Of a DNA stretch of 64,000 nt, positions 3,135 to 22,203 are shown in pieces. Positions within the stretch are counted from its first letter, which is position 1. Each line of letters opens with the position of its first letter. The translations under genes and the position numbers were made by a program. A model generated the notes under the pieces. That model was not told the origin of the DNA and did not search any database. It saw only the letters and a program-made list of their open reading frames with translations. Source of the stretch: Pseudomonadales bacterium (GTDB taxonomy: Bacteria; Pseudomonadota; Gammaproteobacteria; Pseudomonadales; Azotimanducaceae). The stretch is from assembly GCA_963663145.1 (NCBI GenBank), contig OY760134.1, forward strand, positions 256,416 through 320,415. The letters are read 5' to 3'.

Positions 3135-6100
3135 ATGAAGCCCGGTTCGCAAAAGTTAAGTACTTTTGCGGGCTGTAGCCTGCCTTTACTGCTGATCATC
3201 CTCGCTTGGCTTTGGGCGACACCCGTCTTGGCACAAAGCGTGACGCTGTCGACAGGCTATTCACCCACCGTGAAAACGGCGACCTTGACCATTTCCGGCC
3301 ACACGGCCGCTTGGTGGCACAAGAGCGACCAAACCAACGCCACCTGCGCTTCCGTCGCCGCCAATTCCTCAAGCGCGGATCTGACCAACCTGACCGGTGG
3401 CACCACCTATGTGTGGAAAGCCTATAGCGATAGCAGTTGCAGCACTGAGCTTGCAAGCACGACCTTCACCACCATTGCCGTCACCATTGATCAGGTCACC
3501 GCGACGACGGCGAGGCTGAACCTCAATCACAACACCCATCGGACTTGGTCTTACAAGCAGACATCGCCGACAAGCAGTCCTGCCCAAGCTTGCCAGCAAG
3601 ACTGGCTTTGGGCGTTTAATCCAGAAGATAGTCCGCAATCGCTGACCGGATTATCGCCGAGCTCAAGCTACACCTTTACCGTCTATTGGGGCGCCGGCTG
3701 TGCGGCCGGAAAAGAGGCCGAAGCTGTCGCCTTCACTACTTCCGCTGCCACGCTGGCGGTCAGCAGCATCACGACGACAACGGCGACCCTGACCATTTCC
3801 GACCATTCGAACATCGCTTGGTGGTACCAAGGGAACCAAAGTGGCGCGACCTGCACGTCTGTCGCCGCGAACACCCTGACCGCGAATCTGGCCGACCTGA
3901 CAGTGGGTACGGAATATACCTACAAGGCCTATCGTGCCTCGGGCTGCGCTGCGGCAAACGAGATCGCCAGCCGCACTTTCACCACCCTAGCCGGCCCCCC
4001 GAGCGCGCCTTCCAATCTGAGCTCAACAAAATCTTGGCGTCCCGCCAGTCTCCCTCCGAATCCCGTGCAATACCCGAGTGGGATTCGGGTGCGATTCTCA
4101 TGGACCTCGGGTGCGGACAACGGCGCGACGATCACAGGCACCGACCTGCGATACCGACGAACGAGTCCCGTGGGCAGCTGGCAGATCCAGAGGAACGCAC
4201 ATATAACCGAAGCAACCCTGACGTTTGTTTCGACCATCACCAATTTCGGCAAGGCGATGGAGTTCCAGGTCAAGGACGACAACTCCAAGGGGGCTGGCAC
4301 GTGGTCCGCGTCTTCGGCCTTTACGGTGGCGCTCGAGCCAGCCAAGCCCACCGCACCGTCAATTACCCCCGGCCACAAGCAGTTGGGCCTTTCTTGGACG
4401 GCACCCGACAGCCGCGGCGCGGACATCACCGGCTATGAGGTCCAATACCGCTTGGGCAGTTCCGGAGACTGGACCGACCATACGCACTCCGGTACCGGAA
4501 CGACAGCGACCATCACCGGCCTGAACATAGCGACCGCCTACCAGGTGTGGTTCAGAGCCACCAACTCCGAGGGAGATGGGGCATGGTCGGATGCCGCGTC
4601 CGCAACCACACTCGATAGGCCGGGCGAAGTCGCGGGCCTGACCGCCACCGCCGGCAGCGACGGGTCCATCGATCTGGACTGGACCGCCATAAGCGAGGCG
4701 GCAAGCTACAAGGCGCAGTACAAGTATGGTACCCAAGACTGGTCGGCGACGCGGCAGTCCACGGCGACCACCAACTCGCTCAACATTGCCCGCAGCTTAC
4801 TCACCGCGAACACTGCCCACTCCTTCCGGGTGGCGGCGACAAACGGCAGCGGCGATGGTCCCTGGTCCGACGAGGTGGTGGCGACGCCGGTGGACGTGAC
4901 ACTGCAGGCGAGTACTGTCGGGGCGGACAGCGCGACTCTCACGATCGGCAACTACAGTGGCACTTGGTATTACAAGCAGAGCGCGCCGACGGCCGGAACC
5001 TGCTCTAGCGGGGTGTCCACCGCATCAACGACTCTAAGCAGCCTATCGACCGGCCAGATCCACACCTTCAAGGCCTATAAGGACAGTCAATGCACGGGCG
5101 CCGTGCTTGCCACCGCGCCTCCATTCCTGACCAAGCCCGGCAAGGCGGCTGGCGTGACGGCCACCGCGGCCGCCGCCGCCCTCGACCTGAGCTGGACCGC
5201 GACCACTGGCGCGTCGGGCTACAAGGTGCAATGGAAGTCCGGCAGCGACGATTGGAGCGCCACCAGCCGGCAGACCACCTCGACCACCGCCTCGGCGACG
5301 ATTCCTTCACTGACCAACGGCACGATTTACACGGTGCGCGTGGCGGCGGTCAACGACGTCGGCGACGGCGTCTGGTCGGACACCGCCACGGGCACACCGT
5401 CCGGGAGCGTGCTGCGCTTGGCGGCGGGGACATCGACAGGCGGTGCGGTGATCAACATCTCGGGACATGCCGGAACCTGGTACTCGAAAGCTACCCCGCC
5501 CACGGACGCCACCTGCGAAACGAACAGTACCTCCACAAAATCCGTGACGGGCAAAAGCTCGGGCACCAGCTACACGATTACGGCCTACAGCGACTCGAAC
5601 TGCGCGACCCAACTCACGTCGCTCGGGTTCACCACCCTGCCCGCCAAGGTGACCGGCGTGACTGTTGTGGCGCGCGCCGCCTCGCTCGGTGTGAGCTGGA
5701 CGGCGGAAACCGGCAACGCCGCCACCAGCTACAAGGTGCAGTGGAAGTCCGGCGCACAGGGCTACGCCGCCAACCGCCAGGTCATCACCACCAAGACCCG
5801 TGCATCGCTGACCGGCCTCACCAACGCCACGCAGTACACCATCCGCGTGGCGGCAACGAATGCCGGCGGCCCCGGCTCGTGGTCCGACAACGCCACCGGC
5901 ACGCCTTCGGCGACGGCGGTCACGCTGACCGCTAGCGTGACCGCCAGCGGGGGTTCGTTCACCCTCGCCAACCATGCCGGAAATTGGTGGTACAAGATCA
6001 CCCCGCCAGCCACCGCGACCTGCAGCCAAGGCCCTTCCAGCAAAACGCTCGTCAGCTCCACCTTGAGTTCCGGCACTGAATACACGCTCGCGGCCTACAG

Positions 6101-9100
6101 CGATTCATCCTGCGCCACGAAGCTCACCTTACTGGACTTCCTCACCCTGCCCGCAAAGACGACCGGCGTGACACTCGCCAACCAAGGCGCGTCCCTGCGC
6201 GCGAGCTGGACAGCCGTGACCGGCGCATCGGGCTACAAGGTGCAGTGGAAGTCCGGCAACGAGAACTTCGGCACCACCCGGCAGACCACCTCCGCCACAA
6301 CCTCGGCGACGATTCCTTCGCTGACCAACGGCACGGCCTACAGCATGCGTGTGGCGGCGGTCAACGCCGCCGGCGACGGCGCTTGGTCGGACACGGCGAC
6401 CGCGACGCCTTCGGTCAAGCTGATCGCCAGCAAGGTCACCGCGACCGGCGCGAGGCTGACCCTGGCGGGCCACACCGGGAGCTGGTACGTCGCTGGCTAT
6501 CGCGGCAACACCACGGTCATCGCCTGTAGCCGGGTGGACGGCTCTTGGAAGGACGTGACCCTACAGGGAAACAGGAGCTACTATTACGCGGCGTTCAGCT
6601 CTTCAAGATGCGAAGAGCCGGTGCTGGCGGACACGAGCTTCACTACGCCGGGCGCGATCAAGCTGCTGGCCGACAACGTCACCAAGAGCTCGGTCGAACT
6701 GTACCTTTATGGCTACAACAAGCGCGCCGGGGATCCGGATGTCTGGTACAGCCTGCGGCCGGCGAGCGGCAGGGCCGTGGTGGGGTGCGGCCGTTGGGGC
6801 CGGTCGCAAATCATCGGCGTCAGCCCCCTGGGCGCTGGGCAAACCTACACCGCGGAGGCGTTCTGGGACAGGAATTGCTCGCCGGAGCAGCGGCTGTCGA
6901 GCGTGACCTTCACGGCGCTCACCGATGCGGATGGGCCGCGCCCGTCGCTGGCCGCATCGAACCTGACCAGCACCGGCGCGACGCTGACGCTGTCCAACCA
7001 CACCGGCAACTGGTGGTACCAGAAGGGCGTCAACGGCGCCTGCACCGCAGTGACCGGCGGCGCGACGAGCGTGCACGTCACGGGGCTGACACCCAATAAG
7101 GACCAAGTCTTCTGGGCGTGGAGCCAAGACGAATGCGACCAGGCCGACGAGTCGACCGAGTGGTACGCCACGGCGCACTTCACCACCCCCGGGACGGTGA
7201 GCGTGTCGGTGGGCGACAAGACATCCACGGGCTTCACGCTCACGCTGCGTGGCTACACCCAAGCCAACGGCTATCCGGACACTTGGGCGTTCAACGTGCT
7301 GCGCAAGGCAAGCAATGGCTACTGGGAGGGCAGCCTCTGCCGCACGCTGCCGCGCGCCACGGACACCGCAGCGGTCACGGGGCTGGAGGCTGGCAAGCAG
7401 TACACGATCAACATCTACAACAGCCCGACCTGCAACTTCGCGTCCACAATTGTCAGCGCGACGCCGGTGACCATGACGAGCATGGCCGCTGGCAGCGTCG
7501 GGCCCTCGTCGGCGACGCTGACGCTGGAGCACCACGAGGGCGCGTGGTCGTACAAGGGCGGCGAGGCATCGGGGCAGGGCGCCGGCGCATCCTCCTCGTC
7601 AGGCGCGGGACAATGCCGATCCGTGCCTGCGGGCACCTACACCGCCGAGCTCGACAACCTGAGCGCGGGCACCGACTACGCCTACACCGCCCACTTCGGC
7701 GGGAACTGCGCGGGCGGCGAAATCGCCGCAACGAGCTTTACCACGCCGCAGTCAGCGACACCCGGCGCACCTGACGAACTCGCGGCCACGGCCGGAAACG
7801 CGAGCATCGCTCTGACTTGGAACAAACCGTCGGATGCGAGCATCACGGGCTACGAATACCAAGTGAGCCGCAACGACACGAATGGCGGCAAACTCAACGT
7901 CTGGAGCGACTGGATGGCCATCGGCGGTGCCGGCGCGGACACCGTTCTGCATAATGTTTCTGGGCTGATCAACGGGCACGAGTACCGCTTCCGCCTCCGA
8001 GCAGTCAACGATGCTGGGACGGGCACGAGCGCCCCCGTGGCGGCACCCTATTATGTCTCGGCGATACCGGAAGCCGACAAGAGGCCGTCGCCGCCGGCGA
8101 CGCCAAACTCGGTCTCCGTGGCGCTCGGCGATGGTGTTTTGAAAGTTGCTTGGTCGGCCGTCGAGCGTGCGACGGGCTACCACATCACCTACAGTTCCGA
8201 CAACGGCGCAAGCTGGAAGCTCGCGGCGGAGAACCATGCCGACAAACGGATCGCGATCTCCGGGGTGGACAACGCGCTCACATACATCGTCGGGGTGCGC
8301 GCCGTGAACGAGTACGGAAAAAGCGGCTGGACCAACTCGTCGCCCGTCGGACCCTTTTCCCCCGGGTCGCCGGAAAAGCCGGTCGAGGTGTGGGTCCTGT
8401 GCGGCGACGGCACTCTGAAGGTCTTCTGGTCGGCTGTCGAAGGCGCGACGGACTATCACATCACCTACAGCTCCGACCACGGGGCGAACTGGCACTTGGC
8501 GGCGCTGAATCATCCAACCAAAACCATCGAGATTGCGGGAATCGACAAGGCACTGACCTACATCGTCGGTGTGCGGGCGCGTAACAGGCACGGGTACGGT
8601 GGCTGGACCAACTCACGGCGCGCCGGGCCCTGCTCCGACGACGGCGCTTGGACGACGGGCGCGGGCATGGGCCCGTCCGGGGCGGCGGTGTCGCCGGTGC
8701 CGAACCTCGTGCCGAGCTTCGCAGGCGATGTCATCGTGCCCGATGCGTCCTCTTGGAAACAGAACACGCCCATCGAGCCGGTCACATTGCCCCGTGCCCA
8801 AGGCGGGAACGGGACGCCGATCTACTCGCTGTCGCCGGAGCTGCCGCAGGGACTCAGCTTCGATCCGGCCACACGGCTGCTGTCCGGCACACCCGCCGAG
8901 GCGCTTGAAGAGACCATGTACACTTATTCGGCAGCAGATGCCGACGGCGACGCGGCGGAGTTGACCTTCGCCGTCCGCGTGGCCGCGGACCTCGCGCCGG
9001 GCTTCGCCAACGCGGAGCCAATTTCGCTGCGCCTTGAGCAGTACAATGCCATGGATCCCCTGACGCTGCCGGAGGCGCGCGGCGGCGATGGGGAACTGCA

Positions 9101-10784
9101 TTACGAACTCTTGGGCGCGCTGCCCTGGGGGCTGGCATTCGACGCCGCCACGCGCACCCTGTCCGGCACGCCGATGGAGGTGTCTGCCGGGGCGAGCCTC
9201 AAATACCGAGTGGTGGATTCGGATGCGGTGGCGCCGGATTCGCACAGCTTGGCCATCGGGGTCGAGGTCGGGGTGTCGGCCGCGGACGCGGCGGCGCTGG
9301 AGGGGGCGCTGGCGGCGCAGGGCCGGGCGCTGTTGTCGGGCGCGGCCGGGGTGATCGGGGCGCGCCTGCGCGGCGTGGACGACGGTCAGGGCGGCGAGGG
9401 GTTGACGGAGGCTCTGTCGCGGGCGCTGTCGCAATTGGGCGCTGGGGGCGTCGGAGGCATGATCGACGTCGGCATTGAATTCGACGGTGCCTACGGGCCG
9501 ACCGCGGCGGACGATCTTACGGATAAAGGTGTGGTCATGCAAAGTGGTTCGCTCGGCGACGGCATGCCGCCGACGGATATGGGCGGCGGAGCGTCGCCGG
9601 GCATGCCGCGAAACCTCTCCTTCGCGCTGCCGTTCGGCGGCTCCGGGAACCCGGACGCTTGGATGCTCTGGGGCGCATCGGCAGAGCAGGGCTTCGACGG
9701 GGGTTCGGGTGCATCAGACTTCGATGGCAGGCTGTCCTCGGTCTACCTCGGCGCCGACGGACGGATCGGGGAAAACCTCATGGTCGGGGCGGCGCTCTCG
9801 CGCGGCGCCGGCCGGACGGATTACGACACCGGAACCGCTGGCGGCGCACCCGGTCGGCTCGACACCGAGATCCTCTCGGTGCATCCCTACATCCGCGGCC
9901 GACTCGCGTCGGGCTTCGAACTCTGGGCGTTGGGCGGCTACGGAAGCGGCGAACTCAAGAGCGAACGCGAACTTGAGGGGGCGTCGGCGGAGACGGCCGA
10001 CCTCTCGATGCGCATGGCCGCGGCAGGCCTTAGACGGAGCTTGAAGCCGCGCGGGCGCTTCGAACTCGCGCTGGTCGGCGGAGCGGGACATCTCAACCTG
10101 TCCACCGGGTCCGGCCAGCGGGCGGTTGACGGGCTTGAAACGGACGTGTCGCAGCTGCGCCTCGCGCTCGAAGTCTCGGCAGGCGGTGCGCTGTCGCCCC
10201 ACATCCAAGTGGGGACGCGCGCCGACGAGGTCGGGGGTCGAACCGACACTGGCCTCGAGGTGGTCGGAGGACTGCGCCACTCCGGCGAGCGGCTCGACTT
10301 CGAAGCGCTGGCGCGTTGGCTGTCCACTGGCTCGGACGACGGCGGGGGTTACGAGGAGTACGGGGGCAGCCTGCGGCTGACCCTGAAGGCGCTGCCGGAC
10401 GGCACCGGCCTGCGGTTCGGCCTGGCGCCGAGCTGGGGCCGCGCGGGCGTCGCCGGCGGACTCCTGGGCGGCGGGCGGTACGACATGTTCTCCGCGGCGA
10501 ACCAAGCGTTCGCCATGCCCGGTGCCGGTCAACGCCCCGCGCCGTCAATGGCGCTGGAAAGCGACCTCGGCTACGGCCTTGCGACGCGGCACGGATTGCT
10601 GGTGCTCGGCGGCGGCCACCGCCGCGACGCCTTCGGCGCCGCCGAACGCTACGGCTTCACCTGGGAGTCGGTGGGCGACGCGGACACCGGCTGGAACACC
10701 CGCCTGAGACTCGACTGGCACCCCGCCACCGGCACCACCGAAGCCGGCTGCGCCTTCGAACTCACTTGGCGCCGCGAGTTCTAA
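3135..10784 (+). CDS. Giant (2,549 aa) surface protein: signal peptide, two-Cys modules, FN3 repeats, He_PIG/Ig-like repeats and a C-terminal autotransporter (type Va) beta-barrel
   Basis: A single 7,650-nt ORF with SD GGAGAG 7 nt upstream and a signal peptide (LLLIILAWLWATPVLAQS). It contains 11 two-Cys ~85-aa modules. It has 9 canonical fibronectin-III repeats (e.g. LSWTA..GYKVQWKSG..Y.VRVAAVN..GDG.WS). It has 2 He_PIG/cadherin-like repeats (PIYSLSPELPQGLSFDPATRLLSGTP; LHYELLGALPWGLAFDAATRTLSGTP). A Gly/Ala linker precedes a ~380-aa beta-barrel ending ELTWRREF. Confidence 0.85.
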   Translation: MKPGSQKLSTFAGCSLPLLLIILAWLWATPVLAQSVTLSTGYSPTVKTATLTISGHTAAWWHKSDQTNATCASVAANSSSADLTNLTGGTTYVWKAYSDSSCSTELASTTFTTIAVTIDQVTATTARLNLNHNTHRTWSYKQTSPTSSPAQACQQDWLWAFNPEDSPQSLTGLSPSSSYTFTVYWGAGCAAGKEAEAVAFTTSAATLAVSSITTTTATLTISDHSNIAWWYQGNQSGATCTSVAANTLTANLADLTVGTEYTYKAYRASGCAAANEIASRTFTTLAGPPSAPSNLSSTKSWRPASLPPNPVQYPSGIRVRFSWTSGADNGATITGTDLRYRRTSPVGSWQIQRNAHITEATLTFVSTITNFGKAMEFQVKDDNSKGAGTWSASSAFTVALEPAKPTAPSITPGHKQLGLSWTAPDSRGADITGYEVQYRLGSSGDWTDHTHSGTGTTATITGLNIATAYQVWFRATNSEGDGAWSDAASATTLDRPGEVAGLTATAGSDGSIDLDWTAISEAASYKAQYKYGTQDWSATRQSTATTNSLNIARSLLTANTAHSFRVAATNGSGDGPWSDEVVATPVDVTLQASTVGADSATLTIGNYSGTWYYKQSAPTAGTCSSGVSTASTTLSSLSTGQIHTFKAYKDSQCTGAVLATAPPFLTKPGKAAGVTATAAAAALDLSWTATTGASGYKVQWKSGSDDWSATSRQTTSTTASATIPSLTNGTIYTVRVAAVNDVGDGVWSDTATGTPSGSVLRLAAGTSTGGAVINISGHAGTWYSKATPPTDATCETNSTSTKSVTGKSSGTSYTITAYSDSNCATQLTSLGFTTLPAKVTGVTVVARAASLGVSWTAETGNAATSYKVQWKSGAQGYAANRQVITTKTRASLTGLTNATQYTIRVAATNAGGPGSWSDNATGTPSATAVTLTASVTASGGSFTLANHAGNWWYKITPPATATCSQGPSSKTLVSSTLSSGTEYTLAAYSDSSCATKLTLLDFLTLPAKTTGVTLANQGASLRASWTAVTGASGYKVQWKSGNENFGTTRQTTSATTSATIPSLTNGTAYSMRVAAVNAAGDGAWSDTATATPSVKLIASKVTATGARLTLAGHTGSWYVAGYRGNTTVIACSRVDGSWKDVTLQGNRSYYYAAFSSSRCEEPVLADTSFTTPGAIKLLADNVTKSSVELYLYGYNKRAGDPDVWYSLRPASGRAVVGCGRWGRSQIIGVSPLGAGQTYTAEAFWDRNCSPEQRLSSVTFTALTDADGPRPSLAASNLTSTGATLTLSNHTGNWWYQKGVNGACTAVTGGATSVHVTGLTPNKDQVFWAWSQDECDQADESTEWYATAHFTTPGTVSVSVGDKTSTGFTLTLRGYTQANGYPDTWAFNVLRKASNGYWEGSLCRTLPRATDTAAVTGLEAGKQYTINIYNSPTCNFASTIVSATPVTMTSMAAGSVGPSSATLTLEHHEGAWSYKGGEASGQGAGASSSSGAGQCRSVPAGTYTAELDNLSAGTDYAYTAHFGGNCAGGEIAATSFTTPQSATPGAPDELAATAGNASIALTWNKPSDASITGYEYQVSRNDTNGGKLNVWSDWMAIGGAGADTVLHNVSGLINGHEYRFRLRAVNDAGTGTSAPVAAPYYVSAIPEADKRPSPPATPNSVSVALGDGVLKVAWSAVERATGYHITYSSDNGASWKLAAENHADKRIAISGVDNALTYIVGVRAVNEYGKSGWTNSSPVGPFSPGSPEKPVEVWVLCGDGTLKVFWSAVEGATDYHITYSSDHGANWHLAALNHPTKTIEIAGIDKALTYIVGVRARNRHGYGGWTNSRRAGPCSDDGAWTTGAGMGPSGAAVSPVPNLVPSFAGDVIVPDASSWKQNTPIEPVTLPRAQGGNGTPIYSLSPELPQGLSFDPATRLLSGTPAEALEETMYTYSAADADGDAAELTFAVRVAADLAPGFANAEPISLRLEQYNAMDPLTLPEARGGDGELHYELLGALPWGLAFDAATRTLSGTPMEVSAGASLKYRVVDSDAVAPDSHSLAIGVEVGVSAADAAALEGALAAQGRALLSGAAGVIGARLRGVDDGQGGEGLTEALSRALSQLGAGGVGGMIDVGIEFDGAYGPTAADDLTDKGVVMQSGSLGDGMPPTDMGGGASPGMPRNLSFALPFGGSGNPDAWMLWGASAEQGFDGGSGASDFDGRLSSVYLGADGRIGENLMVGAALSRGAGRTDYDTGTAGGAPGRLDTEILSVHPYIRGRLASGFELWALGGYGSGELKSERELEGASAETADLSMRMAAAGLRRSLKPRGRFELALVGGAGHLNLSTGSGQRAVDGLETDVSQLRLALEVSAGGALSPHIQVGTRADEVGGRTDTGLEVVGGLRHSGERLDFEALARWLSTGSDDGGGYEEYGGSLRLTLKALPDGTGLRFGLAPSWGRAGVAGGLLGGGRYDMFSAANQAFAMPGAGQRPAPSMALESDLGYGLATRHGLLVLGGGHRRDAFGAAERYGFTWESVGDADTGWNTRLRLDWHPATGTTEAGCAFELTWRREF
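3237..7746 (+). repeat. Intragenic array of 11 two-cysteine modules interleaved with FN3 repeats (coding repeats)
   Basis: The recurrent pattern is TLT(I/L).(G/N)H.G.W(W/Y)YK....(A/T)C...25-40 aa...(T/Y)Y...AY(S/K)DS.C......F(T)T. A strictly alternating module/FN3 block spans about 4890-6640. Confidence 0.6.
9615..10784 (+). other. Autotransporter-type beta-barrel translocator domain of the giant protein
   Basis: Alternating amphipathic strands are visible (SSVYLGADGRIGENLMVGAALSRG, ILSVHPYIRGRL, ELWALGGYGSGEL, LRLALEVSAG, GGSLRLTLKA). The terminal aromatic F is typical of OMP/autotransporter C-termini. Confidence 0.7.
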
Positions 10785-10915: not shown

Positions 10916-11033
10916 ACGAAACTTGATTGGCGGCGCATACTTCGGCTGTCCCTTCACCCCAAGTTGCAAATGAACCTCCTTGTCAGCGAGCCTCGTCAAG
11001 GCTGTCGCATCAGATCGGTACGCGGATCACACC

Positions 11034-12437
11034 ATGGCTAATTTCATTGGCCGCCGTTCGGAACTCAATGTGCTTGAGGCGGCATTCGCGTCCGGGCGCT
11101 CCGAGTGTATTCCAGTGTTCGGCAGACGTCGGGTTGGCAAGAGCGAACTCATCTTGAAGTTCATGAGGGGCAAGCCCGGTGTCTATTATCTCGGCGGGCA
11201 ATCACCGAGCAGCCTGCAAGTGCGCGAGTTTCTTGTGGAAGCGGCGCGCACGCTGAACATGCCGCTGCTGGCTGAACTCGGCGTCAGCGATTGGCGCAAG
11301 GCGCTGACAACCGTTGTCGATCAGTGGGCACTCACGCATCCGGATTCGAAACTGGTGTTGGCTCTGGATGAGTTCCAGTGGATCGCCGCATCTGAGCCCG
11401 GCCTTGTCGCAGACTTGCAGCATTGTTGGGACCGCCACTGGAAAACTACCGGCAGTGTGCTGTTGTTGCTTTCCGGTTCCTATATCGGTTTCATGGAACG
11501 TGAGGTGTTGGGTCAATCGAGCCCGCTCTTTGGTCGCCGCACGGCGCAAATCCATCTGCGTCCGTTCGGTTACCTGGAAGCCGCCGAATTTCACCCGAAT
11601 TGGTCACTCCATGACCGAGCGCGCGCCTACTTTCTGGTGGGCGGACTGCCGCAGTATCTGCTCTGCCTCAATGACCGCCTTTCCGTTCATAGCAACATTC
11701 GCCAAAACCTACTCAACGAATATGCGCCGCTCTTTCATGAACCCACGTTTCTGCTGCGAGAAGAACTGCGCGAGATCGCGCCCTACCACGCCATTTTGTT
11801 CGCGATTGCCGGTGGGAGGCGCACCGTGCGTGCGATCGCCAAGGCCACCGGCCTGCCGGATCGCAACCTGCATTACTATTTGCGGCAACTGGTCGATTTG
11901 GGATATGTGCAACGGTGCTACCCGCTCGATGGCCAACGAGCAAATCCGAAGCAGTTGCGTTTCGTGATCCGCGCCCCATTGCTCAGGTTCTGGTTCCGGT
12001 TCGTGTTCCCCAACAGCAGCATCATCCGCAGCGCCGGCGCTTCCCGCGCGTTCACCGAGCGTATCGCACCCTCGCTTGATGCTTGGTTTGGCAGCGGATT
12101 CGAACACCTCTGTCGCGAGGCCCTGCCGCTCATCTATGCGCACGAGGGCGTGGGCGCAGGTTTCGAGGTTGGTGAATACTGGAGTCCAACGACACAAATC
12201 GACACCGTAGGCCTGCGCGACGACAATTGGACGGACTTGGGCGAATGCAAATGGGGAACGGTGCGGTCGCCGGTCGCGTTGGAAGCGGAACTTGAGCGCA
12301 AGACAGGGTTGTTTTCGAACAATCGTGGTGCGACTCTGGGGCGCCGGTATTTTGTGCGCCGCAAGCCAACCGGACGAAAAGAGGCGCCCAACTGGTATGG
12401 GCTGGACGACCTCTACGCACTGGAGGCGGGTTCCTGA
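11034..12437 (+). CDS. P-loop ATPase (archaeal-ATPase/DUF234 type) with wHTH and a PD-(D/E)xK-like C-terminal domain
   Basis: Walker A is FGRRRVGKSE and Walker B is LVLALDEFQ. The wHTH-like segment is RTVRAIAKATGLPDRNLHYYLRQLVDLGYV. The C-terminal IDTVGL...LGECKWG has a D...ExK pattern. The ORF track starts at TTG 10980. ATG 11034 (MANFIGRRSEL) fits family N-termini better. Confidence 0.8.
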   Translation: MANFIGRRSELNVLEAAFASGRSECIPVFGRRRVGKSELILKFMRGKPGVYYLGGQSPSSLQVREFLVEAARTLNMPLLAELGVSDWRKALTTVVDQWALTHPDSKLVLALDEFQWIAASEPGLVADLQHCWDRHWKTTGSVLLLLSGSYIGFMEREVLGQSSPLFGRRTAQIHLRPFGYLEAAEFHPNWSLHDRARAYFLVGGLPQYLLCLNDRLSVHSNIRQNLLNEYAPLFHEPTFLLREELREIAPYHAILFAIAGGRRTVRAIAKATGLPDRNLHYYLRQLVDLGYVQRCYPLDGQRANPKQLRFVIRAPLLRFWFRFVFPNSSIIRSAGASRAFTERIAPSLDAWFGSGFEHLCREALPLIYAHEGVGAGFEVGEYWSPTTQIDTVGLRDDNWTDLGECKWGTVRSPVALEAELERKTGLFSNNRGATLGRRYFVRRKPTGRKEAPNWYGLDDLYALEAGS

Positions 12438-12512
12438 GGCAGCGAAAGAAGCGAATCAAGACTGACTTCCTGTCAGCGCGTTTGCACCTTGTGATGATGT
12501 CTAGTGCCGCTG

Positions 12513-13913
12513 TCAGGAACTGAGAATTTCCTTCACGATGTCTGGCAGGCGCTCGACAAGATAGAGCGGCAGGGACAGCAGAGGGTAGTGGACTTGATGG
12601 GAGGAGTCTTTGATGCGTACCGCCGCCTGCACTTTCTGTAGGCTTGGTGGAGAGGCATCAAATCGAACTGCCAAGGCCGGTTCCTTCTCCGCCACGAACT
12701 GGTGCAGTGATTTGAGGGTGCCAACACGGCCTGCCTTAACCTCTATTGGCACAATCTGCCCCCCCAGTTCGACCACGTAGTCCACTTCTGCGTTGTTGGA
12801 GCGTCCCTCGCGCAGCCAGTATGTGAGCTCGCGATTGGGTCGCCGGGCAAGCAGGTATTGAAGGTGCTGACCGATGAATTGTTCGGCGCTGGTGCCAGCG
12901 TTCACCAAATCGGTGGTTCCAGCGGCCTGAATCGTTTCCCACCCGACGCCGCAGATCGCGTTCATCAGCCCAACGTCTAGAAAAAGCAGCTTAAAGACGT
13001 TCTCTTTGCAGTCGGCCTGCAGTGGCAGGCCGGAACAGGCGCTGTGCGTTACCTTTGAAGCAACCCGAGCCATGGTCAACAGCTCGATGTCGCGGCGAAT
13101 GGTTGCGCTCTGATCGTTTGGCGATATGTTGCTGAACTTCACCTTGCGGCCGGGCTGGCGGGCTGCAAAGTTGAAAACGCGCAGCATCCGGGTCATGTCG
13201 CGGCGCGCGGCATATTTCGGAAAGTCATCGCGATAGGTGTCAACTATGTTGGCGTGAACGTCGCTGACGTCTCGCAGACTACCGGAATCAGCGAACACAC
13301 ATACGGCTTCGGGCATGCCTCCGATATATTGATACAGGCGGAGATGTTGCAAGAGCTGCTCATGGATTATTGCCGGGATCGAGGCGCCGCTGCCGGTGCG
13401 CCACTCGAACTGATCGATGGTGCGGGCGAGCCTGCCCTTGCCGATGCCATTCAGTAACTCCGTGAAGGTCATCGGCCCAACCTGGAGGGAGTCCACCCGG
13501 CCCACGGGCATGGAAAACGCGTGGTCCGCCAGCGCAAACTCCATAAGCGAACTGGCGGCTATGACGGGTTGCTGGGGCATTTCCTCAAAAAAATACCGCA
13601 ACGAAGCGATCGCCGCCGGCACGGCCTGAATCTCGTCAAGGAAGAGAATGCCTTCAGCCGACAATGGCGTATCGAGAGCACTATGGAGCATGTCTAGAAT
13701 GGCCTTTGGATCGTTGCAGGCAAACACCTCACCAAGGTGTGGATGCCGTTCCAGATTAATCGCGGACAGGCTGCTGCCTTCTTGTTTGGCGAGCAATTCC
13801 ACCAGGGTGGATTTACCGACCTGCCGCGCCCCGCGAATTACCAGCGGCTTGCGCCGCCGGGAGTGCAGCCAAGTGCGAAGGTCTGTCGATTGATGTCGGT
13901 CCATGCGGCGCAA
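12513..13913 (-). CDS. AAA-type ATPase (AAA_14 + DUF4143 architecture, COG1373-like)
   Basis: Walker A is RGARQVGKST and Walker B is ILFLDEIQ. The C-terminal AEVDYVVELGGQIVPIEVKAG has a PD-(D/E)xK-like D...ExK pattern. The gene is convergent with the preceding ATPase gene across a 75-bp gap. Confidence 0.85.
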   Translation of the reverse strand: MRRMDRHQSTDLRTWLHSRRRKPLVIRGARQVGKSTLVELLAKQEGSSLSAINLERHPHLGEVFACNDPKAILDMLHSALDTPLSAEGILFLDEIQAVPAAIASLRYFFEEMPQQPVIAASSLMEFALADHAFSMPVGRVDSLQVGPMTFTELLNGIGKGRLARTIDQFEWRTGSGASIPAIIHEQLLQHLRLYQYIGGMPEAVCVFADSGSLRDVSDVHANIVDTYRDDFPKYAARRDMTRMLRVFNFAARQPGRKVKFSNISPNDQSATIRRDIELLTMARVASKVTHSACSGLPLQADCKENVFKLLFLDVGLMNAICGVGWETIQAAGTTDLVNAGTSAEQFIGQHLQYLLARRPNRELTYWLREGRSNNAEVDYVVELGGQIVPIEVKAGRVGTLKSLHQFVAEKEPALAVRFDASPPSLQKVQAAVRIKDSSHQVHYPLLSLPLYLVERLPDIVKEILSS

Positions 13914-16177: not shown

Positions 16178-16224
16178 TGAACAACACGTTAAGGTGTGGC
16201 CAATCGGCATAGGAGCCCATTGGC

Positions 16225-16473
16225 ATGGCGAAAAGGGAGCAGTAGTCGGCGGAGTTCAAAGCGAAGGTGGCGGTCTCGGCGATCCGCTACAAGATCCATC
16301 CGAACATGATCACCAAGTGGAAGCGCGAAGCGCGGGAAGGCATGAAGGACCGCTTCGCCCGCGGCGGCAAATCGAGCCAGGGCGATCACCAGGCGGAACT
16401 CGAGGAACTGCGCGCCAAGATTGGCGAGTTGGTGGTGGAACGGGATTTTTTGCAGCGCGCCTTCGATCGATGA
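16225..16473 (+). pseudogene. IS3-family orfA (HTH protein) with an in-frame TAG at codon 7 and an apparent internal deletion
   Basis: After SD AGGAG it reads ATG GCG AAA AGG GAG CAG TAG, then TCG GCG GAG TTC AAA GCG... (MAKREQ*SAEFKAKVAVSAIRYKIHPNMITKWKRE...). Family members read REQYSAEFKAKVALEA(10-14 aa of HTH)..HPN.I..WK. Confidence 0.65.
16446..16452 (+). other. Candidate -1 programmed frameshift heptamer T TTT TTG at the orfA/orfB overlap
   Basis: It has the X XXY YYZ form in the orfA frame (GAT TTT TTG). orfB is in the -1 frame relative to orfA, and the site lies 20 nt before the orfA stop. Confidence 0.45.
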
Positions 16474-17315
16474 GCGTCGAGCGAAGGCGAGAGATGGTGG
16501 GGCGGGAGCGCCACAAGCTCAGCTTGAGCCGGCGGTGCCGGCTGCCCGGCATCAGCCGCGGCAGCCTGTGCTGCCGGCCGAGGGGCGAGTCGCAAAAGAA
16601 TCTGGCGCTGATGCGCCGGATCGACGAGCAGTCCCTGAAGACCCCGTGGCACGGCGCCCGGCAGATGGCGCGCACCTTGCGTCGGCAAGGACATCCGGTG
16701 GGCCGCAAACGCGTGGGCCGGCTGATGCGGCTGATGGGTCTGCGTTCGCTGGCGCCGGGGCCCGACACCGGCCGCAAGCACCCGACGCATCCGATCTGCC
16801 CTTACCTGCTCAGGGACCGCCGTATCGACGCGCCCAACCAGGTCTGGTGCGATGATGTCACCTACATTCCACTGGCGCACGGCTTTGTGTATCTGGTGGC
16901 GATCATGGACTGGCACACGCGCCACGTGCTGTCGTGGCAACTGTCGATCACCCAGGAGGCGAGTTTCTGCCTGGACGCGCTGGACGCCGCCCTGGAGCGC
17001 TATGGCAAGCCGGAGATCTTCAACACCGACGAAGGCAGCCAATTCACCAGCCGGGATTGGACGGACACGCTGGAAGCGTCCGGCATTCGGATCTCCATGG
17101 ATGGCAAAGGCCGCTGGCTGGACAACGTATTCATCGAGCGGCTGTGGCGCTCGCTCAAGCAGGAGTGCGTCTACCTCAATGCCTTCGACTCGGTACGCGA
17201 CTGCCAGGCCAGCATCAGCGCGTGGATGGAGTATTACAATCGAGAACGCACACACTCGAGCCTCGGCGACCTCACGCCCAGCGAGGCGTGCGAAACGTGG
17301 CGGGAAGCCGCATGA
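16470..17315 (+). CDS. IS3-family transposase orfB (DDE integrase core)
   Basis: The rve-type catalytic core is present: NQVWCDDVTYIP (D), IFNTDEGSQFTS (D), NVFIERLWRSLKQE (E). ATG 16470 overlaps the orfA stop (ATGA). The upstream extension of the ORF to 16194 is just the open -1 frame. Confidence 0.85.
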   Translation: MSVERRREMVGRERHKLSLSRRCRLPGISRGSLCCRPRGESQKNLALMRRIDEQSLKTPWHGARQMARTLRRQGHPVGRKRVGRLMRLMGLRSLAPGPDTGRKHPTHPICPYLLRDRRIDAPNQVWCDDVTYIPLAHGFVYLVAIMDWHTRHVLSWQLSITQEASFCLDALDAALERYGKPEIFNTDEGSQFTSRDWTDTLEASGIRISMDGKGRWLDNVFIERLWRSLKQECVYLNAFDSVRDCQASISAWMEYYNRERTHSSLGDLTPSEACETWREAA

Positions 17316-18936: not shown

Positions 18937-20010
18937 ATGACAAGTGCCATGCCTTTCATTGCCGCGTGCCAGGGTGAAGCGACTACACATACACCCATCT
19001 GGCTGAATCGTCAGGCGGGGCGTTACATGCCGGCCTATCACCGCATCAAAGGGAATCTCACCAGCAAGGAGTTCTTCCTGCATGCGGAGCGCGCGGCAGA
19101 AATGACCCTCACTGCGCAAAAGCTGCTGGGCGTGGATGCCGCGATTCTGTTCACTGATCTTCTGCCGGTGCTAGAGTTGATCGGACTTGATCTGGACTAC
19201 AAGCCGGGCATAGGCCCAGTGTTCAGCAATCCACTGCGCGAACACAAGGCTATTCAAGCACTTCCGAAGTACGAGATGGAGCATGACATGGCTTGTATTT
19301 CCGAGTGCATCAGCCTGATCCTCTCCGACTTGCCTCGAGATATTGCCCTGATTGGCTTCGCGGGCGCCCCCTTCACCCTAGCGTCTTACGCGGTCGAGGG
19401 ACAGGGGGGAGGGAATAAGGAGACCGTCAAGCGCATGATGCACGATGCGCCAATTCTATGGAATTCACTGATGAAGGCACTGGTGGAACTGGTCTCAGGC
19501 TTCGTCGAGCTGCAGGTCAAGGCTGGCGTTCATGCCGTGCAGTTGTTCGATTCTTGGGTGGGCGCACTGTCGCTCAGTGATTATCGGAGATTCGTTGCGC
19601 CTTGGACCAAAGCGCTCATCGATTGCATACGAGAGAACGCCGGCCCCGAAGTGCCAATCATTCTTTTTGCAACCGGCAACGGTCATCTACTCAAAGACAT
19701 GGTTGCGACTGGTGCGGATGTCATGGCGCTCGATTGGCAAGTGCCGCTTGGCGAGACATGGGAATCCCTTGCTTGTTCCTCGGTGCAGGGCAATTTGGAT
19801 CCTGTTGTACTGTTATGCGAGGAACAGGCCATTGAAGGCGAAGCACGACGCATTCTGGATGAAGCTGCTGGGCGACCGGGCCACATCTTCAATCTCGGCC
19901 ATGGAATCTTGCCTCAGACTGAAGAGGACAAAGTGAGGTTTCTCGTGGACAAGGTGCATGAGATGAGCGCTACCGCTCGCCCCAGTTCTCACCCAATCAA
20001 TGCGCAGTGA
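18937..20010 (+). CDS. hemE: Uroporphyrinogen decarboxylase
   Basis: The HemE signature PIWLNRQAGRYMPAYHRIK is near the N-terminus and the protein is collinear with HemE throughout. ATG 18937 is preferred over the track start 18889, which overlaps the cyclase gene end. Confidence 0.9.
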   Translation: MTSAMPFIAACQGEATTHTPIWLNRQAGRYMPAYHRIKGNLTSKEFFLHAERAAEMTLTAQKLLGVDAAILFTDLLPVLELIGLDLDYKPGIGPVFSNPLREHKAIQALPKYEMEHDMACISECISLILSDLPRDIALIGFAGAPFTLASYAVEGQGGGNKETVKRMMHDAPILWNSLMKALVELVSGFVELQVKAGVHAVQLFDSWVGALSLSDYRRFVAPWTKALIDCIRENAGPEVPIILFATGNGHLLKDMVATGADVMALDWQVPLGETWESLACSSVQGNLDPVVLLCEEQAIEGEARRILDEAAGRPGHIFNLGHGILPQTEEDKVRFLVDKVHEMSATARPSSHPINAQ

Positions 20011-20030: not shown

Positions 20031-20885
20031 TTAAGAAGCGCGCGCTTCCCTCATTTCAGCCCGCATAGCCCGCCGCGCCTCGCCCTGCTGCTTCAGTGCA
20101 TTGGCATCCTGCGGACGCAATTCCATGTATTCCCTGCGCCAATCGTCGCTGCCCCACGCATAGGGGGTGCGGGCGATGGCGCGAGGGCCGGTCGCTTGCT
20201 CCAAGAGGTCGATACCCGATTCAACGATTGAGAGTTGCATTTCGGCATCGAAGGGTCGGCCAGCGGGGTTTCCGAGTGGGAAGTCCGTGAATACAAATCG
20301 CGGCGCACCGCAATGCATGCCGATATCAATTGCCGAACCGAGAATGACGGTCGGGATGCCGGCCTCCTCGAGGTGGCGAGCGACCAGACACACGGTCTGG
20401 TGACAGACTGGTCACAAGGGGACAAGTAGGGCGATATCGGCTCCATCCTCGCGGCATCGCGTGAGAATCTCCGGCGCGTCGATACCTATGGTGCGCCGTT
20501 GGCTGTACTCGGTCGGTACGCAATGAAATCTGGGGGTGAGTTCACCTATGCGCCCCTGTTCGACAAGCGTCTTCAGCCGGTCAATGGGGAAATATGAGTT
20601 GAGATCCTCAAGATGGGTGGCCTTGCGGTCCCAGAAGAGGTCATTGGCGTAGAGTCTTTCTGGGCACTGGTCAATAAAACCCGACGCCACCGAACGAGGG
20701 TCGGTTTCATGTCGTTCGTGCAGGCTTGCCGTGCTGATGAGCGCGAGACGAGACTCTGCAAGCGGCCCGCTTGGTCGCGTGAATGGCACTTCATCGGGCT
20801 TCGCCCATTGATACGGCTTTTCAAAGCCCTGCGCCTCGTAGTACCGGCGAGTGCGCTCCATATAGGCGACGGGTTGGGCAGACAT
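20031..20885 (-). CDS. GrdB/PrdB-family (glycine/sarcosine/betaine/D-proline reductase B-like) protein with in-frame UGA; candidate selenoprotein
   Basis: Track ORFs 20412..20984 and 20031..20393 share one frame and are separated by TGA (20414..20412) plus 6 sense codons. The joined sequence reads ...ALLVPL-U-PVCHQTVCLVARHLEEAGIPTVILGS. The probable start is ATG 20885 (MSAQPVAYMERTRRYYEAQGF), and the maximal ORF extends to 20984. Confidence 0.7.
20383..20414 (-). other. UGA plus candidate bacterial SECIS hairpin
   Basis: The mRNA reads UGA CCAGUCUGUC ACCAGAC CGUGU GUCUGGU. A 7-bp stem (20401-20395 / 20389-20383) starts at +11 after UGA. The 5-nt apical loop contains GU at +18..+22. Alternative pairings (GACCAG/CUGGUC) exist. 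Confidence 0.5.
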
Positions 20886-21002
20886 CGTCCCATTGTACAG
20901 GCGAGATTGGAAAGTGCTCAAAATCTGTGCAGACCTCGGGAATCTCTTCGGAGGGAGGGCCGCGGTCAAATCCATGCCCGACACCGCCGAGCAGCAGCAT
21001 GC

Positions 21003-22193
21003 TCACAATGCCGCCGGTGCCGAAAGAATGTCTTGCTCGGCTTCATAGTCCACGCCATCGACCGAGAAGCCAAACACCTTTAAGAACGCTTCGCGAACAC
21101 CGGAGAGATCGCTTAATGCCTCAATGTTCTCGGAACTTGCGATTTCCCAACGGTGCGCAACTTCCGCCTGGATTTCATCGGCCAATTCCTGCGCATCGAG
21201 CCTGATTCGCCCCGCCTCATCGAGGCCGCAGTCCCCGGCCCCATACAGCCGTGTCTTACACAACCGCGCGATATGTTGAAGCGTTGATTCAAATACGCCG
21301 CGTTCCTTCATGACCTTGAAGAGCAAGGACACATAGAGCGGCACCACGGGGATCGCGGTGCTCGCTTGGGTGACAGTCGCCATGAGCGCCGCGACGCGGG
21401 CATCCTGACCCTTACTCAATTGACCACGAATCGACTCTGCGGCCCGATCCAAATCCTCCTTCGCCCGTCCGAGTGTTCCCTTGTGATAAATCGGCCAAGT
21501 CAATTCGCTGCCAAGATAGGTGTAGGCGACCGTCTGAAAACTCTCCGACAAGAGATTGGCGGACTTCAGGGCATCTATCCAATACTCCCAATCCTCCCCA
21601 CCCATCACGGCAATGGTGCTCTGCGTTTCGGCTTCGGATGCGGGTTCCAAGTGCGTCTCGCTGACTTGGCCGGAGTGTATGTCGAGGGTGCGGGAATCCA
21701 CCGGCGCACCGAGTGGTTTGATGGCGGATCGGTAGAGTTCGCCCGACTTCGGGTGCTGGCGCACCGGAGAGGCGAGGCTGTAGACAAGCAGATCCACCGG
21801 GCCAAAGTCCTGCGCAAGCCGCGAACAGACTTCGTCCTTGATCTCGTCGGAAAAGGCATCGCCGTCAAGGCTCTGCGCGTCCAAGCCACGCGCGGTGGCT
21901 AGGCTGTCAAAGGCGCGGGTGTTGTACCAACCTGCGGAAGCCGTACGCTTAGCTGTCGGTGCCTTTTCAAAAGACACACCGAGGGTGCGAGCGCGATAGC
22001 CCGCAGCGGCAACCACGCGAGACGCCAGCCCGTAGCCTCCGGAAGCGCCAAGTACCAGAACGTTGCCGGGCCCCGCCTTGGCGTCGATACCCATCTTCTC
22101 AATTTGCGCGAAGTCTCTGCGCAGCAGTTCAGCGCATCCCGTCGGGTGCGCGGTTGTGCAAATGAAACCGCGAATTCGTGGCTGAACGATCAT
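21003..22193 (-). CDS. fabV: Enoyl-[acyl-carrier-protein] reductase FabV (trans-2-enoyl-CoA reductase family)
   Basis: MIVQPRIRGFICTTAHPTGC, VLVLGASGGYGLASR and the ~396-aa length are typical of FabV. ATG 22193 has SD GAGGAG upstream and lies 10 nt after the folA stop. The track extension to 22319 overlaps folA. Confidence 0.9.
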   Translation of the reverse strand: MIVQPRIRGFICTTAHPTGCAELLRRDFAQIEKMGIDAKAGPGNVLVLGASGGYGLASRVVAAAGYRARTLGVSFEKAPTAKRTASAGWYNTRAFDSLATARGLDAQSLDGDAFSDEIKDEVCSRLAQDFGPVDLLVYSLASPVRQHPKSGELYRSAIKPLGAPVDSRTLDIHSGQVSETHLEPASEAETQSTIAVMGGEDWEYWIDALKSANLLSESFQTVAYTYLGSELTWPIYHKGTLGRAKEDLDRAAESIRGQLSKGQDARVAALMATVTQASTAIPVVPLYVSLLFKVMKERGVFESTLQHIARLCKTRLYGAGDCGLDEAGRIRLDAQELADEIQAEVAHRWEIASSENIEALSDLSGVREAFLKVFGFSVDGVDYEAEQDILSAPAAL

Positions 22194-22203
22194 TCGATAC
22201 TCC

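Follow-up and report, generated by a model that had tools for sequence, protein, structure and literature searches.

The gene analyzed here lies on the minus strand of a 64-kb stretch of contig OY760134.1 from a Pseudomonadales bacterium; we call this whole stretch the window, and gene coordinates are window positions. Two open reading frames (ORFs), 20984..20412 and 20393..20031, occupy the same frame, and the sole break in that frame is a TGA at 20414..20412, followed by six sense codons (CCA GTC TGT CAC CAG ACC, encoding P-V-C-H-Q-T) before the second ORF begins. The original prediction had read the two ORFs as halves of one selenoprotein gene, with selenocysteine (Sec, or U) at the TGA. 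Our translation agrees with this layout and reproduces exactly the predicted read-through peptide, ...GADIALLVPL-U-PVCHQTVCLVARHLEEAGIPTVILGS; across residue 158, the peptide reads LLVPL-U-PVCHQTVCLVAR. Very probably, the gene at 20885..20031 encodes a 284-amino-acid (aa) Sec protein of the stand-alone PrdB-like family that has been published as the marine "Proline reductase PrdB."

The boundaries of the gene differ from those of the ORFs. GTG 20984, taken as the end of the gene in the original prediction, is only the mechanical start of the first ORF, as GTG 20393, 18 nt past the TGA, is of the second. The three closest homologues begin with M-P/Q-A-Q/E-P/A-V-A-Y-M-E-R-T, and their alignment points to ATG 20885, which is therefore most likely the real start codon. 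Translation and the homologue starts thus delimit a complete gene of the GRDB superfamily at 20031..20885 on the minus strand, running from ATG 20885 to a TAA stop at 20033..20031. The product has 284 aa and a mass of ∼31 kDa, the size originally proposed, with the candidate Sec-UGA as codon 158. The GC content is ∼58% and flat over the locus; thus, the gene does not look recently imported.

An in-frame UGA at a conserved Cys/Sec position

A homologue search of 5.8 billion proteins returned 3789 matches. The full-length homologues, which originate from Bradyrhizobium and numerous metagenomes, are ∼290 aa long, share ∼50% identity with the window protein, and are named "glycine reductase," "PrdB," or hypothetical. 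They read PL-C-PVCHQT, with an invariant Cys exactly at the TGA column of the window gene. The three closest clusters (83-88% identity) consist of 157-aa proteins that end at this column, and their contigs carry a TGA there, followed by an in-frame ORF of 118-120 codons. Among the best 24 representatives of the 50%-identity clusters, 20 terminate at the TGA column. Gene callers were expected to split such genes, and the 157-aa and 118-120-aa products on the contigs of the relatives bear this out.

A genome scan (one genome per GTDB species) found 505 loci encoding a relative. The best 80 of these were examined, and all 80 have TGA at the column, at amino acid identities of 52-88%; they belong to Pseudomonadales, including Candidatus Azotimanducaceae, to metagenome-assembled genomes (MAGs) of sponge-symbiont Gammaproteobacteria, and to Myxococcota. 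A metagenome scan seeded with Cys forms added 54 Cys-form and 26 additional TGA-form loci, mostly from soils. In total, TGA occupies the identical column in all 111 TGA-bearing loci that were fetched (window included), which span Pseudomonadales, sponge-symbiont Gammaproteobacteria, Myxococcota, and soil contigs, and the column holds TGC or TGT in 60 Cys loci. One TGA form lies on a 4-kb contig labeled as a Klebsiella pneumoniae MAG (L070; CAMDVY010000364.1). All relatives of this sequence are environmental Gammaproteobacteria, so the contig is probably mis-binned.

The same column holds Sec in authentic PrdB. The RefSeq-annotated prdB genes of Peptoclostridium acidaminophilum and Terrisporobacter petrolearius, both taken from plasmid records, have their Sec-TGA in the TGA column of the window gene; that of P. 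acidaminophilum reads ...FTAG-TGA-GTCHRS.... In the window gene and in both authentic PrdBs, the TGA is followed by x-x-C-H, so that three TGA codons share one column. The TGA therefore falls, as had been supposed, on the conserved Cys/Sec position of B-type proteins. The U-x-x-C motif is invariant in the family. Its first residue in the window protein would be U158, encoded by the in-frame UGA at 20412..20414 (minus strand), which aligns with the invariant Cys and with the Sec-TGA of the RefSeq prdB genes. Its last is Cys161 (codon at 20403..20405, minus strand), the presumed resolving cysteine of U-P-V-C, which is invariant across 110 family members and authentic PrdB.

The 126 C-terminal codons (20031..20411, minus strand) would be translated only upon recoding of the UGA. 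This part is homologous to the C-terminal halves of the Cys forms and PrdB, and it evolves as a coding sequence. Comparison of codons 159-270 with four relatives gave 9/2/32 (L001), 19/15/51, 11/5/31, and 13/3/36 substitutions at codon positions 1/2/3, the same third-position bias as upstream of the UGA. Because the substitutions are mostly at third positions, the region downstream of the UGA is translated. The adjacent fabV gene ends with TGA at 21005..21003, so TGA is an ordinary stop codon in this genome. Taken together, the conserved TGA column, the coding bias downstream, and the TGA-terminated fabV rule out, for practical purposes, that the TGA is a sequencing error, that the locus is a pseudogene, or that the genetic code is altered.

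A covarying hairpin specific to the Sec forms

A putative selenocysteine insertion sequence (SECIS) hairpin occupies 20383..20401 on the minus strand, with a 5' arm at 20401..20395 (ACCAGAC), a loop at 20394..20390 (CGUGU), and a 3' arm at 20389..20383 (GUCUGGU). The stem has 7 bp and begins at +11 after the UGA; the loop spans +18..+22. Within the stem, a conserved 5-bp core pairs CAGAC (20399..20395) with GUCUG (20389..20385). On its own, the hairpin has a folding energy of -8.9 kcal/mol (z = -3.1), and only 3 of 200 shuffled sequences were as stable. The published bacterial SECIS (bSECIS) model specifies an apical loop of 3-9 nt, a stem of 4-16 bp, a minimum free energy (MFE) of ≤-7.5 kcal/mol, a G at loop position 1 or 2, with G or U usually next, and a UGA-to-loop distance of 16-37 nt (PMC13188914). 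With a 5-nt loop, a 7-bp stem, GU at loop positions 2-3, a spacing of 17 nt, and its energy of -8.9 kcal/mol, the window hairpin agrees with the model in every respect. Rfam has no family over the hairpin, whether the whole window was scanned at gathering thresholds or 20200..20600 at permissive E values, and its only match is a tRNA-Lys.

Covariation also supports the hairpin. In a set of 78 distinct Sec-form sequences (set A3), 93.4% of the stem cells are paired, versus 15-32% in slid controls, and the five inner stem pairs are intact in every sequence. Compensatory double changes occur at three of the seven pairs (A-U to U-A, n = 9; G-C to A-U, n = 1; C-G to U-A, n = 17) and one-sided changes at none. 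The observed covariation score was matched by none of 500 shuffles. Among the Sec forms from soil, CAG..CUG and CAA..UUG show strict covariation. The constraint can also be followed at a single codon: T-V is followed by Ser, Gly, or Cys, yet the codon at this position is always NGU (GGA if the partner base is U). This pattern indicates that RNA is constrained at a position where the protein is not.

The hairpin is tied to the Sec forms. A fully Watson-Crick 5-bp core is found in every distinct Sec form (62 of 62) but in a single Cys form (1 of 39; Fisher's test, p = 4e-27; the sequences are related and hence not independent). Most Cys forms have AGC, which breaks the A-U pair, and mix CAA freely with CUG, whereas loop positions 2-3 are GU in all Sec forms. 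Third-position entropy at codons +6/+7/+9 is 0.08/0.52/0.00 in the Sec forms versus 0.95/1.69/0.64 in the Cys forms. The 7-bp stem at +11 and the GU-containing loop at +18..+22 had been put forward on geometry as a bacterial SECIS; covariation, together with the Sec/Cys contrast, now identifies the hairpin as a genuine one.

The one Cys-form exception comes from two soil metagenome contigs (L094:4472 and L095:2029), which encode a Cys form with TGT and carry a complete SECIS hairpin. They keep the AGT Ser codon, which every other Cys form lacks, and look like cases of a recent Sec-to-Cys switch that preceded hairpin decay.

A stand-alone relative of PrdB

Among protein models, NCBIfam TIGR04483 (PrdB) is the nearest to the window protein (E 7.6e-27; 94.3 bits; profile positions 24-234 of 238), although the score does not reach the equivalog cutoff of 300 bits. 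The match to Pfam GRDB (PF07355) is below its cutoff (11.5 versus 22 bits), as is that to TIGR01918 (35.1 versus 65.45 bits), which covers only profile positions 281-421 of 431. No relative was found in the PDB by sequence or profile search. The AlphaFold model of a Cys homologue that is 52% identical to the window protein (P0002; predicted local distance difference test [pLDDT], 84; predicted template modeling score [pTM], 0.86) has a Rossmann-like alpha/beta domain, in which the Cys/Sec site lies at the N terminus of a helix, right after a beta-strand, and the second Cys lies one turn on. A Foldseek search with this model returned nothing at E ≤ 1e-3, just generic Rossmann-like folds.

The family has been reported before. 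In the Sargasso Sea selenoproteome of Zhang, Fomenko, and Gladyshev (2005; PMC1088965), "Proline reductase PrdB," a UXXC family with 42 genes, ranks third in abundance among selenoprotein families, and Zhang and Gladyshev (2008; PMC2398784) reported 235 Sec and 110 Cys sequences of the "Proline reductase PrdB" family in data collected by Global Ocean Sampling (GOS). The supplementary sequence AACY01093821 reads ...LLVPLuPVCHQTVGLVARHLESNGIPTVIAGSA... (PMC1088965) and aligns with the window protein over 175 aa at 53% identity, ungapped (E 1e-69). PVCHQ strings occur 14 times (PMC1088965) and 86 times (PMC2398784) in the supplements that list "Proline reductase." The marine proteins share with the window protein the context LLVPLuPVCHQTV.LVARHLE..GIPTVI.GSA and the U-x-x-C motif, and the published DNA, TGA CCC GTC TGC CAC CAG ACC GTG AGT CTG, forms the same hairpin; nothing essential sets the window gene apart. 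The gene is a true selenoprotein gene and a further member of a family already described by computation.

In those papers, the family is named after D-proline reductase (one member is named GrdB), and the missing PrdA partner is not reported. The only "Glycine reductase selenoprotein B" of the Sargasso Sea, AACY01202822 (PMC1088965), belongs to the same PrdB-like family and has the same motif and hairpin; the GrdB and PrdB labels in the Sargasso Sea literature thus appear to cover one orphan family. No paper on the function of stand-alone PrdB-like proteins was found in the literature searched. The original prediction, a stand-alone GrdB/PrdB-like selenoprotein, stands as to the selenoprotein and as to the lack of a nearby prdA or grdA, but it overrated the novelty of a family published in 2005 and 2008.

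Comparison with the characterized enzymes reveals both homology and divergence. PrdB (TIGR04483), which occurs in Clostridia, Enterococcus, and Ligilactobacillus, is a Sec or Cys enzyme with the SECIS inside its coding region. The window family is homologous to it over nearly the whole length of PrdB, at 28-33% identity, and shares the Sec/Cys column, x-x-C-H, and the following GIPT(V/I)I strand. On the other hand, it has an invariant VPTEYSQR(K/R)T where PrdB has GFMGGGG and has TDFPLGNP where PrdB has (I/L)VP(I/M)GANAG, and it is longer by ∼20 aa at the N terminus and by a C-terminal helix of ∼45 aa; no prdA, prdC, prdD, or prdE context was seen. GrdB, GrdF, and GrdH (PF07355, TIGR01918) are more remote: the 284-aa window protein is distantly homologous to the C-terminal third of these proteins of ∼430 aa, Sec site included, but is without their N-terminal two thirds and has no grdA homologue nearby.

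Could the protein nevertheless belong to a D-proline- or glycine-type reductase as its genuine B subunit, with PrdA or GrdE and the other subunits encoded elsewhere in the genome? The homology to PrdB over nearly the full profile, the common Sec column with U-x-x-C-H, and the names given in the literature and in some databases (PrdB or glycine reductase) would suit such a role. Gene context does not. No match to PrdA (tblastn with the Terrisporobacter query) or to GrdA (a published sequence as the query) was found in the window and 171 related loci, which reach up to 10 kb on either side of the gene and total 1.43 Mb, whereas prdA, which encodes the pyruvoyl proprotein, sits 360 nt upstream of prdB in Terrisporobacter. 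This homology search extends to all those loci the earlier statement that the window contains no prdA or grdA partner. GrdC, GrdD, and GrdE are likewise absent from the Pfam labels of the neighbors, although no direct search was aimed at them. A score of 94 bits against an equivalog cutoff of 300, the replacement of the GFMGGGG of both PrdBs, the terminal extensions, and hosts that, judging from taxon names, are mostly aerobic-type Proteobacteria and not Stickland fermenters also speak against a subunit. We therefore consider this reading unlikely: with PrdA and GrdA missing from the neighborhood of every relative, the protein is probably not the B subunit of D-proline or glycine reductase.

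Three further alternatives concern the UGA itself. The enzyme might be split, with termination at the UGA and a C-terminal polypeptide made separately from GTG 20393; such a GTG exists 18 nt past the stop, and gene callers do predict a 118-120-aa product. However, this GTG is the conserved Val codon of PVCHQT-V and lies within the hairpin loop, the P-V-C-H-Q-T codons, including that of the resolving Cys, are invariant at the protein level yet would be untranslated, and the stop column is Cys in homologues. These observations make a split enzyme very unlikely. We give just as little credence to insertion of Trp, Cys, or Gly in place of Sec, through an altered code or near-cognate suppression. 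UGA is the leakiest stop codon, and the Sec machinery was not observed, but TGA terminates the adjacent fabV, hence the standard code, and a structured element of SECIS geometry whose loop GU is invariant goes strictly with TGA and is lost in the TGY forms, so simple leakiness would not suffice. Finally, a sequencing error or inactivating mutation in a pseudogene would fit the two called ORFs and the lack of visible Sec machinery in the window but is already effectively refuted by the presence of TGA at the same column in 111 independent loci drawn from distinct phyla and habitats, by purifying selection on the downstream frame, and by the covariation of the adjacent hairpin.

Several observations weigh against our interpretation of the gene as encoding a stand-alone selenoprotein. 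The Sec-insertion genes and tRNA-Sec were found neither in the window nor near the related loci, a result that covers these stretches only: ARAGORN detected no tRNA-Sec in the window or the fetched loci (the only window tRNA is a tRNA-Lys), an approximate SelD query, usable as a lead only, had no tblastn match in the same sequences, and Pfam assigns other families to the ten window ORFs of SelA-, SelB-, or SelD-like size. From the strong evolutionary signature alone, we infer that selA, selB, selC, and selD are present in this genome. No experimental selenium incorporation has been reported for the family in the literature searched. When the window sequence is folded on its own, the MFE structure prefers a competing GACCAG/CUGGUC pairing; this alternative hairpin was rejected, as it shows no covariation and 22% unpaired cells. 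Lastly, analogy and the lack of a partner in the neighborhoods are the basis for both the proposed mechanism and the independence from a PrdA-like partner, and one could be encoded elsewhere in the genome.

In our interpretation, the UGA at 20414..20412 is recoded to Sec: while this codon occupies the A site, the SECIS would bring SelB-GTP-Sec-tRNASec to the ribosome, with SelB as the presumed ligand of the hairpin. By analogy with PrdB and GrdB, the selenol of Sec158 might attack a carbon of the substrate, a disulfide, or some other electrophile. The resulting adduct could then be resolved by Cys161 as a selenenylsulfide, to be re-reduced by a thiol system. The protein would thus be a stand-alone selenol/thiol reductase with chemistry resembling that of PrdB and GrdB.

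Gene neighborhood and implications

The gene is flanked by fabV (21003..22196, minus strand) and hemE (18937..20010, plus strand), as originally annotated and now confirmed by Pfam; a nucleotide cyclase gene lies beyond hemE. The Logan contig L001 has the same gene order as the window: lgt, thyA, folA, fabV, the selenoprotein gene, hemE, and the cyclase gene. Neighborhood clustering of the 171 loci, from which ORFs overlapping the target were excluded (antisense ORFs are typical of high-GC DNA), revealed no universal partner. Several neighbors are clade limited. An AMP-binding acyl-coenzyme A (acyl-CoA) synthetase gene is a neighbor in at least 26 Sec loci and is on the same strand in one Cys locus, and genes for a major facilitator superfamily (MFS) transporter (16 loci), an acyl-CoA dehydrogenase (10 loci), and an ApbA-type reductase (13 loci) also recur; fabV is the neighbor in the window and in L001. 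The recurrence of acyl-CoA synthetase, acyl-CoA dehydrogenase, FabV, and MFS transporter genes gives a weak hint of a substrate in carboxylate or acyl-CoA metabolism.

One candidate partner was set aside. A tetratricopeptide repeat (TPR)-like 436-aa gene overlaps the stop codon in 14-20 Bradyrhizobium-type loci; it is confined to this clade and absent from the window and so was rejected as a general partner. In L085 (6873-8183), the 436-aa protein has weak TPR matches, and its gene overlaps the stop region of the Cys-form gene by 4 nt. Ahead of the 436-aa gene lie genes for an MFS transporter and an AraC regulator in L085 and 13-19 other Bradyrhizobium-type loci; the 436-aa gene may represent a clade-specific partner or operon. 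In a single case, a Cys-form member lies tail-to-tail with selO, which encodes the protein adenylyltransferase SelO (L172:6881-8353; Roseomonas haemaphysalidis plasmid p546-2).

A consensus scan identified a promoter-like sequence, TTGAGC-18-TACAAT, at 20892..20921 on the minus strand, where it could direct transcription of the selenoprotein gene. Its -10-like hexamer, TACAAT (20892..20897, minus strand), ends 6 nt ahead of the ATG, with no Shine-Dalgarno sequence. A -10-like hexamer (TATGAT, TATAAT, or TACGAT, ending 6-9 nt before the ATG) occurs at an equal distance in four relatives (L001, L002, L004, and L005), in upstream DNA that has otherwise diverged. Such a hexamer is present in 31 of 77 distinct Sec-form upstream regions (the Pseudomonadales clade) but is missing from all 37 Cys-form regions, where GGAGGAGA is found instead. 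The proximity of the hexamer to the ATG and the lack of a Shine-Dalgarno sequence suggest that the gammaproteobacterial selenoprotein mRNA may be leaderless.

Elsewhere in the window, an ORF at 16194..17315 (plus strand), beside the cyclase gene and ∼3 kb from the selenoprotein gene, looks like an IS3-family transposase, based on integrase-core motifs recognized by eye. The window also contains a 2549-aa ORF at 3135..10784 (plus strand) and, at 10980..13913, two AAA-ATPase genes (ATPase_2/DUF234 and AAA_14/DUF4143) unrelated to the selenoprotein gene. A motif scan for other in-frame TGA candidates in the window was too noisy for use.

Our analysis leaves the basic picture in the literature unchanged, and what it adds is modest: support for the SECIS from covariation, the differing hairpin integrity of Sec and Cys forms, and the spread of the family to sponge symbionts, Myxococcota, and soil. 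It also adds the systematic lack of a nearby PrdA or GrdA, which casts doubt on the published name. In annotation, this locus and hundreds of similar ones, which are now divided into two "hypothetical" ORFs or carry the name of glycine or proline reductase, should each be treated as one Sec-containing gene. The contrast between Sec and Cys forms offers a convenient natural system in which to follow the origin and decay of a SECIS within a conserved coding sequence.

The family is among the most abundant selenoproteins of surface-ocean metagenomes and is also common in sponge symbionts and soil bacteria. We tentatively propose, as a possibility still short of an even case, that its members are not proline or glycine reductase subunits but self-contained U-x-x-C enzymes that work without a pyruvoyl partner in aerobic marine, sponge-associated, and soil bacteria, on a substrate that could be linked to carboxylates or acyl-CoA. 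If this is true, one of the most abundant selenoprotein families of the ocean would be a new enzyme class that has been misnamed for twenty years.

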